Shown one piece after another: positions 10,510 to 33,949 of a stretch of DNA of 43,768 nucleotides. The position numbers and the translations under genes are program-made. Location: positions 1 through 43,768 of the IMG/VR virus record IMGVR_UViG_3300031176_000060. One strand, given 5' to 3'. Source of the DNA: a virus. Lineage: Duplodnaviria; Caudoviricetes. Within the stretch, counting starts at the first letter, position 1, and each line of letters begins with the position of its first letter. The notes under the pieces were generated by a model. That model was not told where the DNA came from. It made no database searches and worked only from the letters and a program-made list of their open reading frames with translations.

Positions 10510-10602
10510 AGTATATTCAATATTCGATATGCGATAACGCATACTCTTCTTACATCCAATATTACCACAACTGATAATAAATAAAAATATATAATATCGC
10601 CT

Positions 10603-29171: not shown

Positions 29172-30149
29172 CTACAATTTGTTAAAAATGTGGTCCATAT
29201 GATATTTCAAGAAATTAGCTTCTAAATCATTTCGGGGGTAAGCCAACTCTCTCATATGATATCGGTTGGTATTGTCAATGTGAATTACTTTCATAGTATC
29301 AGGCTCTATCCCAATTGATCCATAATCAAATTCGGTGTGGTGAGTAGGACAAAGAATTATAATATTATCTTGAACATCAGGCCCATTGTGAGGGCTTCCT
29401 AACGGCTTTAAATGATGCCCTTCCGCATACTTTCTTCCGTTTGACAACTGAATTGTCTCCCCACAAATCTGGCATTTATACTCGTACCTATTCTTCAGTT
29501 GTCGAACTAAGTCAGTATCCCTAATTGTTCGGGTGATAAATGTTGTTACTCTTGAAGGTGGTAAGTAATCTGGTTGAACAGGTTCAGAGTAAGTCGGAAT
29601 AATTTCCTCTCGTATCTCTTCCTCGTTATAATCGAATCCAACTGAGTCAGCGATAATTGAAAAAAGATCGTAGAGTGACTCAGTAGCTGCAAACAAATAG
29701 CCTTGTGCAACCCTTAATTGACTTCCTCTGTACAAAACATAAAATGAACCCTTTTTCGTTTGATTCCTGATTTGGTAGAGTTCACTCTCGTAATCGTGGA
29801 AGATTTTACTTACTCCCACTGGGCTGGGCAGTGATTGAAAATTTCGAAGTGACACTCTGTAATAAGGTGACATTCCTGCCCATTTGTCCGCCTTTGGCGG
29901 TTCGTCTTGTAATTTAACTACTGAAGTAGCAGCCGTTGAAACTCCAACCCAAGCGTACTCCTTGCCATTATCAAGAAAATGAATGATGAAGTCACCTGGC
30001 TGTACTTCGTTCATGATTTCCCACGACCTACCACCGGCACGGTTGTAAACTGGACTCCAAAGACAAGTCCCAAATTCCCATCCTAAGCCTCCATGCTCAG
30101 GATTTGTTACCTCTACAAAAGCACGCCTATTAAATAACCCCGGTAACAC
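29172..30149 (-). CDS. EVE/PUA-like domain + HNH endonuclease; putative modification-dependent restriction enzyme
   Basis: LWSP, MNEVQPGDFIIH in N terminus; CQICG..EGHHLKPLG..HNGPD..DNIIILCPTHH..FD; AT-rich. Confidence 0.8.
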   Translation of the reverse strand: MLPGLFNRRAFVEVTNPEHGGLGWEFGTCLWSPVYNRAGGRSWEIMNEVQPGDFIIHFLDNGKEYAWVGVSTAATSVVKLQDEPPKADKWAGMSPYYRVSLRNFQSLPSPVGVSKIFHDYESELYQIRNQTKKGSFYVLYRGSQLRVAQGYLFAATESLYDLFSIIADSVGFDYNEEEIREEIIPTYSEPVQPDYLPPSRVTTFITRTIRDTDLVRQLKNRYEYKCQICGETIQLSNGRKYAEGHHLKPLGSPHNGPDVQDNIIILCPTHHTEFDYGSIGIEPDTMKVIHIDNTNRYHMRELAYPRNDLEANFLKYHMDHIFNKL

Positions 30150-30409: not shown

Positions 30410-30614
30410 CTTCCATTCCCCCTCGCGGATTGCCCGTAGTATAATTTTCTTGGCGAAGTTTGTATTTGGCTCCCGGCAGGGGGCTGTTTTTTCTATGGAG
30501 GTAACATATGCCTGAATATAGTCTCCTTGACGCGGATAACAAGTCACTTTCCGTCGTTCTCTTTTTTGGTGTGGTTTTTGCGATTCTCTTGTTCTACAGA
30601 TCAAAAAAGTAATT

Positions 30615-30932
30615 TTAAGGTTCATCCCTCGCCAGCCGCGGCCAGTTCACATGCGGCGTGTAATAGTCGCATTTGGCCGATTGGCCTCCCCGCGGCACTT
30701 CAACCAGCGCCCGAGGAATTAACGCGCGCCGCTGCCCTTTGAGCTGGCTGGTAAACGTACCGGGAGGCATCAGAATGTATGCATCTTCTCCTGGATAAAC
30801 TATCGTCAGCACTTTGCCGCGTTTCGTTTTCGTGATGCCGCCCGCCTGACTCTTCCACTCCACAGTGTCGCCGACGGCATAATCCAGATGGTATGTCGTT
30901 TTGCCGTGCGTGAATTCTGTTTTGTAGTGCAT
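30615..30932 (-). CDS. Hypothetical phage protein (last gene of cassette region)
   Basis: VGDTVEWKSQAGG..K.KRGKV; GGAG RBS. Confidence 0.7.
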   Translation of the reverse strand: MHYKTEFTHGKTTYHLDYAVGDTVEWKSQAGGITKTKRGKVLTIVYPGEDAYILMPPGTFTSQLKGQRRALIPRALVEVPRGGQSAKCDYYTPHVNWPRLARDEP

Positions 30933-30971
30933 GCTTTCTCCTCTCCTTTACTCCCGAAATACTGTGTTAAA

Positions 30972-31166
30972 TCAATCGTTTTGGCTGACAACTATCAGTG
31001 AATCAACCGGATAGTATGCCAAGTGACCAAACGGCAATTTCGGCCCAACAGGCCACTGAACAAACGCTCGACCTGTCTTGGAAATCTTCACGACTTCCCC
31101 GTACTTGAGTACATCATCTTTCTTGTGGTGAACAATATCACCCTTCTTTACCTGCGTCTTATTCAT
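30972..31166 (-). CDS. Small SH3/KOW-like hypothetical protein (cassette)
   Basis: VKKGDIVHHK...YGEVVKI; AGGAGG RBS abuts site 31179; stop abuts site 30945. Confidence 0.7.
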   Translation of the reverse strand: MNKTQVKKGDIVHHKKDDVLKYGEVVKISKTGRAFVQWPVGPKLPFGHLAYYPVDSLIVVSQND

Positions 31167-31270
31167 CCCGATCCCTCCTTTTGTCACAGGTAATGTTGTG
31201 ATAAATCACCTTACAAAAGCTGGAACTTTTTCAATTGCCAATCGTAAAAATCGAAAAAGGAGGTTTGACA

Positions 31271-31480
31271 ATGGGCATTATTTTCGTAATCTTTTTCTAT
31301 ATCCTCTGGTTCGTCATTACTGGCTATATTGCGCTAAATCCGCGTGGTGCTTGGGAACTTCTCTGTAAATGGGAATCTACGCGGTACCCATCAAGACAAT
31401 ATTTTGGGTTACTTCGCCTATTCGGTATTTTGGCTTTTTGTGGCCCACTAATCTGGTTCATAACCCAATTCTTTAAGTGA
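31271..31480 (+). CDS. DUF6199-like two-TM protein (inverted cassette)
   Basis: NPRGAWEL..W....PS......RLFG pattern; AGGAGG RBS. Confidence 0.7.
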   Translation: MGIIFVIFFYILWFVITGYIALNPRGAWELLCKWESTRYPSRQYFGLLRLFGILAFCGPLIWFITQFFK

Positions 31481-31514
31481 TCCCCTCATTTAACTTGCCG
31501 TGTGTTGTGTTAAA

Positions 31515-31688
31515 TCAAATTTTCGCAATCGGCAGCTTTTCTTTTGTGATCGGGTCTGTCGGCCAATCTCCGTTTTCGAAGTACTTAGGGTATAGGATTC
31601 TGTCAGCATCTCCGAACAGAATTTTTCCACCTGTGAAGCAAAGATGGGGTTTCCCGTCCCAACCTAAAGTGACACCGATGATCTCCAA
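31515..31688 (-). CDS. Hypothetical 57-aa protein (cassette; not in ORF track)
   Basis: Hand translation MEIIGVTLGWDGKPHLCFTGGKILFGDADRILYPKYFENGDWPTDPITKEKLPIAKI; fills the space between sites 31488 and 31702. Confidence 0.6.
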   Translation of the reverse strand: MEIIGVTLGWDGKPHLCFTGGKILFGDADRILYPKYFENGDWPTDPITKEKLPIAKI

Positions 31689-31733
31689 TTTTCAAACCCC
31701 CATTTACCTCAATTACCGGTGTGTTAAGATGCC

Positions 31734-32177
31734 CTATGGAGCCAAGTCGTTCATATGTTGGGCGCAATCTTGGCAGATGCCGCCTTGATCCAACGGCATT
31801 AGTTCAGTTTCTTCTTGGCACCAAACACACTTCCCAAGAAAATTGCACCCTTCCTGTAAGGTCTGTAATACCGCGTTGCAAATGGCTTCTTCTTTCGATT
31901 CCTCCAGCCATGCCTTGCCGACTTTCCCGCACGGAGTAATGCCCTTGAATGAGTATCCTCCATCATGTCTGTGCAAAGACCACTCTTCGCCAAATACCTT
32001 TTCAGCAAGCTGAATCGCATCGGCTATGTTGTGGAGTGGGTCCCAACTATCTACTTGTGCAGAAATGTCTTGACCCTCGGAGTCTACCCATATGATCGAC
32101 ACCCCAATATTGACTTGCCTCCACTCCATCCCCTGCGTAGCCAGCGTTTCAATGATCTGCTGTTCGGTCGATTCCAT
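31734..32177 (-). CDS. Phage ABA-sandwich-domain-like protein with C-terminal Cys cluster
   Basis: WDPLHNIADAIQLAEK ... EAICNAVL; CVWC..CQDC tail. Confidence 0.65.
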   Translation of the reverse strand: MESTEQQIIETLATQGMEWRQVNIGVSIIWVDSEGQDISAQVDSWDPLHNIADAIQLAEKVFGEEWSLHRHDGGYSFKGITPCGKVGKAWLEESKEEAICNAVLQTLQEGCNFLGKCVWCQEETELMPLDQGGICQDCAQHMNDLAP

Positions 32178-32337
32178 CGTCCCCCTCCTCTTCAAACGCC
32201 ATTTTGAACGTGCTTTCCAAGATGCTCACATACTTTTCCAATTGCCAATCAGACATTTTGCTTATATCCGGACCGTGTCCCGGTACGGTCCGGAAGTTCT
32301 CCAATCGCTTGAGTAGGGCTTGTCTGGTCGCCGTCAC
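32149..32337 (-). CDS. Hypothetical protein
   Basis: AGGAGG RBS; overlaps next gene. Confidence 0.65.
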   Translation of the reverse strand: MTATRQALLKRLENFRTVPGHGPDISKMSDWQLEKYVSILESTFKMAFEEEGDDGIDRTADH

Positions 32338-32437
32338 CAATTTTCCTCCTTAACTAGTGTGAAAAGTTCATTATTCAGTTGGTTAATGTAACTTCCGATA
32401 AGGTTTATAAAACTATCAAATAAAAAGGGTGTTCTAT

Positions 32438-32689
32438 ATGGCATACCTTATCGGTACCTTTGTTTGGTTAATTTTGGTTGGATTCAGTATCTACATGTGG
32501 AATCAACCGAGTGGTTTTCTTGTACTTTTAGGGCACTTTATGGTTTTTGTTGTCGGTGTAGGAAGTACAATTCTTTATGCTATCTATTTACTTTTGGTTT
32601 TTTTATCCAAGCGGAATATGATAGCTTTTTGGATTATCCTTGGAATCACTGTGATAGCAATACTTAGCCTGTTTCTGTATATAACTTGA
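32438..32689 (+). CDS. Three-TM membrane protein (inverted cassette)
   Basis: Very hydrophobic, AT-rich; followed by hairpin 32705-32734. Confidence 0.7.
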   Translation: MAYLIGTFVWLILVGFSIYMWNQPSGFLVLLGHFMVFVVGVGSTILYAIYLLLVFLSKRNMIAFWIILGITVIAILSLFLYIT

Positions 32690-32829
32690 AGGACTTTATT
32701 GAGCAGCCGGGCCAATCCGGTCGCCGGCTTCTTTACTGGATACACATCGTGTTAAACACCTTAGACCTGCTCCCCAATGCAAACCCTCCAATTTGGAAAC
32801 ACTATACGGTGATAGGAGGTCGAACCAAC

Positions 32830-33050
32830 ATGGGGGCTAATGAAACCAAGAAAACTATGCGGTTTTGGATATTTTCAGGTATTGTTGCAATCGTCGCTTC
32901 ACAGTTGCCACTATTACTGAAAAAAAGCAACTCGACAATCAAGCACAGCAGCAACAACAAAAAAGACCTTGGTGGATAAAGTTGCTTATATGGGCACTTA
33001 TAGCAGTTACAATTCGGATTATTATTTGGTTGTTCAACTTTTTTACTTAA
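32830..33050 (+). pseudogene. Two-TM membrane protein gene split by a frameshift in an A7 run
   Basis: AGGAGGT RBS; adding one A at 32920-32926 joins MGANETKK..FWIFSGIVAIV.. to ..RPWWIKLLIWALIAV.. Confidence 0.55.
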
Positions 33051-33131
33051 TCCATCCCCCCATTTAACAAATTGAGCATTGTGTTAAATTGCTTGGTCAT
33101 GGCTCTGCTTAATTGCTACCAGATTGTGTTC

Positions 33132-33674
33132 CTACAAACTGAAATCATCCACCGCCTGGTCCATCAGGTCCTGATTGATACCGATGTATCTGAGCGTGAT
33201 GCTCGGATGACTGTGGTTGAAGATCATCTGCAGCGTCGCCACGTCCTTAGTCCGCTGGTAGAAGTGATACCCAAATGTCTTGCGCAGCGTATGTGTCCCG
33301 ATCTCGCTCAGTCCGACCTTGCGTGCCGCTCCGTTGATGATCTGATACGCTCTCACTCGCGTAATTGGTGCCGGCCGCTTCTTTGAGGCGAACAGGTATT
33401 CATCGGCCTGCATGCTCGCGGTATACTTGTCGATCTGCTTCCGTAGCTTGGCGTTGATCTTGAATCGCTTTCTCTTTCCGGTTTTCTTCTCGGTGATCAG
33501 GATGTGACTCTTTCCCCGAACGTCTCCGACTTTCAAGCGCAGCAGGTCAGAGATGCGCAACCCCGTGTTGATCCCAAGGACAAACAAGAACTGGTTACGC
33601 CGCGACTGCTTTTTAAGCAGCTTCTTCATCTGCTTGATTTTTGCTTTGTCTCGTATCGGCTCAACGTAGTTCAT
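33132..33674 (-). CDS. Short tyrosine recombinase (catalytic domain only, 180 aa)
   Basis: TGLRISD, EKKTGK, GTHTLRKTFGY, NHS....TLRYIG: complete R-K-H-R-H-Y set. Confidence 0.93.
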   Translation of the reverse strand: MNYVEPIRDKAKIKQMKKLLKKQSRRNQFLFVLGINTGLRISDLLRLKVGDVRGKSHILITEKKTGKRKRFKINAKLRKQIDKYTASMQADEYLFASKKRPAPITRVRAYQIINGAARKVGLSEIGTHTLRKTFGYHFYQRTKDVATLQMIFNHSHPSITLRYIGINQDLMDQAVDDFSL

Positions 33675-33733
33675 CCTGATCACCTTTTTTGTCCCAACTG
33701 GTTGTGTTACGCTTCCAGAAGGAGCGTGATCGC

Positions 33734-33949
33734 ATGGAAAAGTCGTTCTATTACGCGGTCCCCTGGCAGGAAGTCAGCTACCTGCGCGAAGCCCTAGCCG
33801 CTCTGGAGATTCCGTTTGTCCTTGAGCAGGATGACTCGCTTGAACTGTCCGCCGGCGAGGTAGCCTTCGTTTTCCCCAATCTCCCCATCAGGCAGTTCCG
33901 CCACGTTTATGAGTTGTTCGGTCAGGCCGGCCGGCTGTATCCGGCCTAA
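33734..33949 (+). CDS. Hypothetical protein divergent from recombinase
   Basis: AAGGAG RBS; 71 aa, LEIPFVLEQ. Confidence 0.65.
   Translation: MEKSFYYAVPWQEVSYLREALAALEIPFVLEQDDSLELSAGEVAFVFPNLPIRQFRHVYELFGQAGRLYPA

Follow-up and report, generated by a model that had tools for sequence, protein, structure and literature searches.

The site array and its genes

We analyzed a 43,768-nucleotide stretch of viral DNA, hereafter the window, which corresponds to positions 1 to 43,768 of IMG/VR record IMGVR_UViG_3300031176_000060 (Duplodnaviria; Caudoviricetes), and focused on an array of 28-bp sites that adjoins the gene for a minimal tyrosine recombinase of 180 amino acids (aa). The 43.8-kb record codes for contractile-tail, head, terminase, sigma-factor, RecT, and YqaJ genes, and its nearest named relatives are Brevibacillus prophages. 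The array occupies a variable region, with replication genes on one side and sigma-factor and packaging genes on the other. A sequence-only reading of this DNA had proposed that seven such sites divide small genes into cassettes that are captured and shuffled by the adjacent enzyme.

The recombinase gene (33132..33674, minus strand; PF00589, phrog_216) has a stop codon that begins the first array site. All sites lie on the same strand, and their central hexamers, or spacers, are given here as minus-strand reads, in the recombinase orientation. Upstream, between the recombinase and a divergent small gene, is a degenerate site at 33685..33712 with the spacer CCAGTT; this spacer differs among relatives and the site therefore falls outside the fixed code described below. 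Downstream of the recombinase, the run begins with site 1, which is also degenerate and overlaps the recombinase stop codon (33107..33134; TCTGGT here, (G/T)CTCAA in relatives), and continues with sites at 33062..33089 (TGCTCA), 32730..32757 (TGTGTA), 32340..32367 (TAGTTA), 31702..31729 (CGGTAA), 31488..31515 (CACACG), 31179..31206 (CATTAC), and finally 30945..30972 (TATTTC). The right arm of the site at 32340 forms the ribosome-binding site of the next gene. Counted from the last site back to site 1, the spacings are 234, 309, 214, 638, 390, 332, and 45 bp.

The seven sites reported earlier had been placed correctly and in a single orientation, and we added two, at 32340-32367 (18.9 bits) and, more weakly, at 33685-33712. 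The exact pattern given for them matched three of the seven (five on both strands) and nothing in 100 shuffles, but missed the other four. With a leave-one-out position weight matrix (PWM), six sites scored 12-24 bits, values reached by at most 2 of 87,468 other positions. The site at 33107 scored -3.7, equaled or exceeded by 375 positions, and is thus weak by sequence alone; its position is real, since a clear site overlaps the stop codon of the recombinase in relatives and one relative has a joint at 33121. Outside the array, the window has only scattered weaker matches, such as one at 10560 with 15.2 bits. The partitioning into modules of roughly 210-1030 bp also held, except that the "1030-bp" module is split by the site at 32340-32367 into 638 and 390 bp.

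Counting from the recombinase, the cargo comprises a reversed gene for a small membrane-type protein (32830..33050, plus strand), which appears frameshifted (contigs of sequencing runs X14 and X16, described below, have one extra A in an A-run at ~32919); a reversed gene for a hydrophobic 83-aa protein without a family match (32438..32689, plus); a two-gene cassette (31734..32340, minus) encoding a 63-aa phrog_10757 protein (32149-32340) and Phage_ABA_S (31734-32195); a 57-aa gene (31515..31688, minus), of which a 69%-identical cassette occupies a different slot in locus L084; a reversed gene for a hydrophobic 69-aa protein (31271..31480, plus); and a gene of ~65 aa (30972..31169, minus). Beyond the last site is a phrog_11941 gene (30615..30932, minus), followed by a conserved xtrA-like block. 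The mixed gene orientation noted earlier is present in the window, with three reversed cargo genes, but it is atypical: 223 of 246 cargo open reading frames (ORFs) in the 34 arrays described below are co-oriented.

Spacer order, breakpoints, and the recombinase family

Relatives of the recombinase were collected from viral, genome, and metagenome collections, and an arm-only PWM, in which the spacer carries no weight, was trained iteratively on the fetched loci and detected 188 sites, grouped into 34 arrays. Across relatives, these lie clustered downstream of the recombinase and share one orientation, and coded sites are co-oriented in all arrays listed. Their spacers follow a shared order: (G/T)CTCAA, TGCTCA, TGTGTA, TAGTTA, CGGTAA, CACACG, CAATCG, CATTAC, GAGAAA, TATTTC. 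Spacers present in at least three arrays account for 164/188 sites, while 5/188 are repeated inside one array. Pair-order agreement was complete among the 18 recombinase-anchored arrays (303/303; shuffle mean 0.667, maximum 0.756) and reached 396/398 over all 34 (shuffle maximum 0.719). The ten code words differ from one another by 2-6 letters, and by at least 3 in 42 of 45 pairs. Since tblastx showed that the flanks of 24 of the 33 other arrays share at most 11% with the window, this order does not simply reflect recent whole-phage descent.

Within a slot, spacers are 0.97 identical, a value inflated by the assignment of spacer classes within 2 mismatches, with 14 sites unassigned; the arms are 0.70 and 0.59 identical within slots and 0.69 and 0.50 between slots, the left arm thus being as conserved between slots as within them. 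An invariant spacer in variable arms is what one would expect if a protein-bound consensus surrounded a strand-exchange region in which partners have to match. The hexamers all differ within the window, which had been read as calling for tolerance of heterologous overlaps as in integron or Tn916-type enzymes. Instead, they form a conserved, ordered code common to phages, suggesting that spacers need to match and that exchange runs between genomes, not by excision or reshuffling within one.

We then compared the window with contigs from runs X14, X16, and X18, which belong to different studies and represent near-identical relatives (X15 gave only short, low-depth pieces). An X14 contig matches window positions 30629-31725 with 5 differences, then has 742 other letters where the window has 616, and matches again over 32342-32756 with 3 differences, a replacement that removes the two-gene cassette at 31734..32340. 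A second X14 contig spans 32743-33075, from one spacer to the next. In X18, 665 other letters replace 30975-31184, including the ~65-aa gene, and 31185-31513 then matches with 2 differences; pieces from X16 stop at 31741, 32337, and 33075. Ten of the 11 long-piece ends inside the array fall within a site ±3 bp, windows that make up 12% of the array; these are hand-chosen ends of long pieces, and joints mapping only a lone site were left out. Identity between loci likewise stops 1-5 bases beyond a spacer in three pairs, L003/L161, L241/L338, and the window with L239, where it ends 2 bases past the spacer at 31702. These slot replacements, with joints at the sites, support two earlier proposals, that tyrosine-recombinase-type sites bound swappable accessory-gene cassettes and that breakpoints between relatives would coincide with them.

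The recombinase consists of a catalytic domain only and aligns with the catalytic domain of XerA. Residues R40, K63/K64, H128, R131, H154, and Y163 are invariant in 9/9 aligned proteins, and the protein is predicted on that basis to be an active tyrosine recombinase (R-K-H-R-H/W-Y). It falls below the cut-off of every Xer, IntI, and invertase model, and two of its relatives bear the NCBI name "YoeC". The family has 248 matching records in the phage collection. In a quick tree of 102 of 246 proteins, built without bootstrap, all 16 array-adjacent recombinases fall within one clade of 22 rows, of which 5 are contig-truncated and 1 is borderline (Shimodaira-Hasegawa-like approximate likelihood ratio test, 98). 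None of the other 224 distinct family proteins accompanies a Brevibacillus-coded array; the array label was built on that code and would miss arrays with another code in other clades.

A link between family and site type also appears beside distant kin (<70% identity, 248 loci), where the symmetric form of the site occurs 23 times in 322 kb within 400 bp of the gene and 3 times in 3,073 kb elsewhere. In each of the five natural pairs found there, the spacers match as reverse complements, a requirement for invertible segments, and two such inverted pairs with different spacers occur in L142. This enrichment and the matched pairs tie the family to the site type and show that natural pairs respect spacer identity, as the proposed association of motif and recombinase family would have it. 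In L158, L038, L138, and L142, the inverted matched sites bracket the recombinase gene itself or segments of 157-209 bp, which are candidate invertible switches.

Cutting the arrays at their sites, after eight isolated or weak sites were left out, gave 169 segments with a median length of 418 bp, 111 of which hold one gene. Gene signals fit closely to the sites: stop codons lie in the left arm, ending 6 or 1 bases within the next site in 92 cases, ribosome-binding sites lie within or just after the right arm, and the first start codon is found a median of 13 bp past the spacer. The 246 cargo ORFs fall into 172 families, 138 of them singletons. Most of the 139 representatives scanned had no Pfam match; the matches include C5, D12, N6/N4, and Dam methyltransferases, PAPS-reductase-like, ASCH, YopX, GNAT, and TriTu immunity proteins, and a weak Lar-like protein. 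The several orphan DNA methyltransferases suggest fast turnover of anti-restriction genes.

Proposed exchange mechanism and its alternatives

We consider it fairly probable, from the comparative sequence evidence, that the array serves as a platform for address-coded cassette exchange, with the 180-aa recombinase family as its enzyme in cis or in trans. With good confidence, we hold that site-specific, spacer-matched exchange occurs, whether through the small recombinase or through a host enzyme. Judging from tyrosine-recombinase chemistry, as in Cre/lox and Xer, only sites with matching spacers would recombine efficiently, and unlike spacers would therefore block deletions within one genome. 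Where two genomes occupy the same cell, such as an infecting phage together with a prophage or a chromosomal remnant, a crossover at a common address and a second at another would swap the block between them, as in recombinase-mediated cassette exchange. The fixed order would keep any two crossovers balanced, while rare repeated spacers, tandem restarts, and near-match crossovers would lead to slot gain and loss.

The chances appear evenly balanced that this amounts to a genus-wide standard for cassette exchange, in which about ten orthogonal, ordered addresses are common to unrelated Brevibacillus phages and to chromosomal remnants, any array can trade single genes, such as DNA methyltransferases and immunity-like genes, with any other via one minimal recombinase in cis or trans, and chromosomal tandem arrays serve as a cassette reservoir.

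Besides the inflated spacer identity and the code-bound array label given above, several observations weigh against a dedicated platform of this kind. Many right arms read GGGAG..., far from the palindrome. Cargo families favor certain slots without being confined to them; in one 15-member family, 11 members directly flank TAGTTA/CGGTAA sites and 4 lie elsewhere. In a wider locus comparison, only 14 of 49 block ends coincided with sites (p = 3e-5 with a null of 8%, p = 0.02 with one of 16%), so that most ends lie elsewhere, and breakpoints recur without a site outside the array, at 30492, ~30230, and 33942. Three DNA-pattern scans returned 97 loci, 50 of them with at least 2 coded sites (41 distinct arrays; the other 47 loci were not counted); within the fetched flanks of 5-8 kb, 11 of the 41 have a close recombinase and 30 do not. 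Five records rated 100% complete lack the recombinase family throughout, and in two records with that rating, G006 and G008, there was no tyrosine recombinase match whatever. B. laterosporus was absent from the named matches among the 120 best homologues, although reduced arrays are present in phages Abouo and Davies. The earlier statement that the array is driven by the adjacent recombinase is therefore supported only in part; the enzyme would often have to act in trans. Ordinary mosaicism operates as well.

Three side observations concern these points. The breakpoints at 30492 and ~30230 mark both edges of the conserved xtrA-like block and occur in several relatives, without a coded site. 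In the complete phage G006 (L329, L430), the array is in two pieces far apart. Downstream of arrays without a close recombinase in L321, L356, L362, and L394 lies a paralogue of 41-47% identity, which could be an alternative catalyst.

Action in trans is made plausible by genomes in which arrays are co-resident. G002 holds two recombinase-bearing array prophages with a common 122-bp cassette, 100% identical; the same cassette is shared by L162 and L163, which have site maps identical to those of two G002 contigs, and it ends within the spacer, between CATTAC and CAATCG. G003 combines one prophage array with at least four further array clusters; several clusters lack the recombinase, and one of these shares 203 bp at 99.5% with the prophage cassette. 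The cluster on contig C18 of G003 (~109.5-123 kb; L441:17476-20000, L393, L442:196-1050) has ~20 coded sites, with the order running through three tandem restarts over ~14 kb, has no close recombinase, and adjoins a phage integrase and an insertion sequence; its cargo, mostly reversed, includes SMI1/KNR4, GNAT, and BslA-like genes. Similar tandem restarts are found in L395, L396, and L446. L084, a contig labeled Bathyarchaeia in which a Brevibacillus-type recombinase accompanies an array that includes several non-code spacers, probably results from mis-binning or else is a phage whose code is extended.

The main rival, which we regard as unlikely, is that the same address-coded exchange is performed by host XerD, XerC/XerD, or another trans-acting tyrosine recombinase in a pdif-like manner, the small recombinase being a passenger or regulator. 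The 30 arrays without an adjacent recombinase, chromosomal clusters included, would fit this explanation, as would the resemblance of the arms to the host XerD arm, with the left arm averaging 6.8/11. In addition, pdif sites are described in PMC11705084 as more palindromic than dif and as exchanging genes by matching central regions. The host dif, GAGTCCGATAA-TATATA-TTATGTAAAC(T/C) (PMC3025954), is present in G002, and a Firmicutes dif consensus pattern had no match in G001-G003. However, array sites match the host XerC arm at best 7/11 (mean 4.2), the ATAA-N6-TTAT core occurs in 0/188 sites, and the ACAA-type inner arm accompanies the small recombinase family in loci labeled Clostridia, Brachyspira, and cyanobacteria-related metagenome-assembled genomes.

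Other chromosomal palindromes, in L346, L348, and L350-L352, were examined and set aside as neither dif nor array sites. A XerD-arm-like palindrome lies beside homologous genes across Brevibacillus genomes, in L348 as in L352 and in L350 as in L351; that of L348, L351, and L352 is likely a transcription-factor operator.

It seems quite unlikely that the sites are conserved boundary sequences for phage RecT-type annealing or for RecA, with order reflecting ancestry and no site-specific enzyme involved. The phage does code for RecT and the YqaJ nuclease, and breakpoints also fall at conserved blocks that are not sites. The cultured phages Abouo and Davies, which have reduced arrays with variant spacers, differ in a two-gene block (L447:3800-4445, L448:4061-4191) bounded by a ~33-bp imperfect direct repeat of a second motif, one similar to the recombinase's upstream site. 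Same-slot sites, however, have only 20 of 28 bases in common, and their longest stretch of exact identity is 9 at the median and at least 20 in 3% of pairs, whereas PMC3945230 cites minimal pairing segments of 23-27 bp (Red-beta) and 31-34 bp (RecA). Use of homology would also leave invariant spacers within variable palindromic arms unexplained.

The mechanism first proposed for this array, integron- or Tn916-like excision and reinsertion whatever the spacer, with shuffling inside the array, appears improbable. Some cassettes do occupy different slots, the L162/L163 break lies inside the spacer between near-matching code words, and the five repeated spacers and the non-code spacers of L084 could be read the same way, but shuffling would scramble or chimerize spacers that are nearly invariant and kept in order in 396/398 pairs, and attC-like hairpins are absent around 8 sites on the plus strand. 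It is very improbable that the sites, without any recombination, merely serve a recombinase-fold repressor as operators, in the way that SPBRE serves MrpR in SPbeta, because slot-specific spacers and joints at spacers would go unexplained and the six catalytic residues invariant here contrast with the three of seven retained by MrpR (PMC10516654), even though that precedent exists, sites overlap ribosome-binding sites, and one lies between the divergent genes heading the array.

The divergent gene at the head of the window array (33734..33949, plus strand; phrog_24281) encodes a 71-aa protein. Its relatives head the array in most recombinase-bearing loci, lie near 23 of the 41 pattern-found arrays, and head many arrays whether the recombinase is present or not. 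The predicted fold (predicted local distance difference test score 94.6; best structural match Z 6.2, root-mean-square deviation 3.2, 65 aligned) is a generic ferredoxin/ACT/PII-like one, and Foldseek gave no match at E 0.001 or better. In five recombinase-less loci (L345, L353, L355, L369, L389), the small gene is followed by a decayed upstream site and then the first array site. This arrangement is only suggestive of the recombinase gene itself being a cassette; the variable upstream spacer speaks to the contrary.

Elsewhere in the window, a 325-aa HNH protein encoded at 29172-30149, in a region of lower GC content, weakly matches modification-dependent restriction enzymes (PADLOC mREase_IV and, below cut-off, NCBIfam NF045808) and is possibly a defense gene. 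A low-GC-looking, moron-like gene of 344 aa follows the lysis module at 367-1401 and has no confident Pfam match. On a bacterial chromosome, an ORF outside the arrays (L442:13441-14727) has a weak match to the delta-endotoxin N-terminal Pfam domain. Searching the array against 50,697 deposited phages by blastn gave 0 matches, an Rfam search returned a single chance match (21 bits against a gathering score of 52), and a promoter and terminator scan performed no better than chance.

Comparison with known systems

How single genes are swapped at phage gene borders is a long-standing question, usually answered by homologous or illegitimate recombination. If correct, the exchange proposed here would answer it with a programmed, site-specific process whose address code can be read, and would provide a first candidate substrate and function for a very common, uncharacterized family of 180-aa phage recombinases. 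A literature search of incomplete coverage, with most subscription journals outside it, turned up no account of phages with an ordered spacer code. What we found undescribed is the ordered common code, the phage setting, and the dedicated enzyme; the chemical step is known, and pdif exchange is the nearest natural parallel.

Like the pdif/xrs modules of Acinetobacter Rep_3 plasmids, where 11-6-11 sites flank accessory genes and recombination takes place only between closely related central regions, the phage arrays combine this geometry with spacer matching between partner sites. In pdif modules, gene exchange is proposed to proceed through cointegration of replicons followed by resolution, and not through excision; they use host XerCD, their sites are often oppositely oriented, and the excerpts available describe no fixed spacer order (PMC11705084). 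The phage arrays, by contrast, have same-orientation sites, about ten spacers in conserved order, no XerC-type arm (XerC- and XerD-type arms with the ATAA-N6-TTAT core were found in 0/188 sites), and a linked minimal recombinase clade.

The sequence-only reading was right that this is not a classical integron: there is no IntI-type integrase (TIGR02249 at 32.6 bits against a cut-off of 265, in a protein of 180 aa), and no common attC hairpin was found in 108-nt windows around 8 sites on the plus strand (z -1.70 to +1.91). The integron motif is RYYYAAC/GTTRRRY, a pattern that the array arms fit, and compact, mostly single-gene, co-oriented cassettes follow the recombinase here (111/169 segments; 223/246 ORFs). 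Integrons and CALINs (attC clusters that have no integron-integrase) share this layout, and enzyme-less arrays are common among them, according to PMC9024848. Integron cassettes are excised and reinserted at attI, whereas slot order in the phage array is set by spacer identity.

Tn916 and CTnDOT have variable, unmatched coupling sequences, unlike spacers that are 0.97 identical within slots (as inflated by class assignment) and ordered in 396/398 pairs. Nor do the arrays resemble shufflons or invertible switches, as coded sites are co-oriented and inverted matched pairs occur only beside distant relatives of the recombinase. The loss of catalytic residues that marks MrpR-type repressors was not observed. 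FimB, FimE, and C. difficile RecV are similar in size (~180-200 aa) and in lacking a core-binding domain, and the distant relatives here also flank short segments with inverted, spacer-matched sites; those enzymes differ in flipping segments within one genome. The 180-aa recombinase scored 35-37 bits with the NCBIfam invertase models (cut-offs 221-222), and it may be related to RecV.

In phages, short conserved boundary sequences at gene borders, including those of PeSL-type cassettes, channel mosaic exchange by homologous recombination, as in the Red-beta mosaicism of PMC3945230, whereas what is conserved in the array is a recombinase site with slot-specific spacers. Another counterpart is engineered recombinase-mediated cassette exchange with heterospecific lox or FRT sites, in which orthogonal spacers block deletion and direct an intermolecular swap. 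That is a laboratory construct, usually with two spacers; the array would be a natural version with about ten, genus-wide in phages, and an enzyme of only 180 aa that comes with about ten naturally orthogonal sites would be of use in genome engineering.

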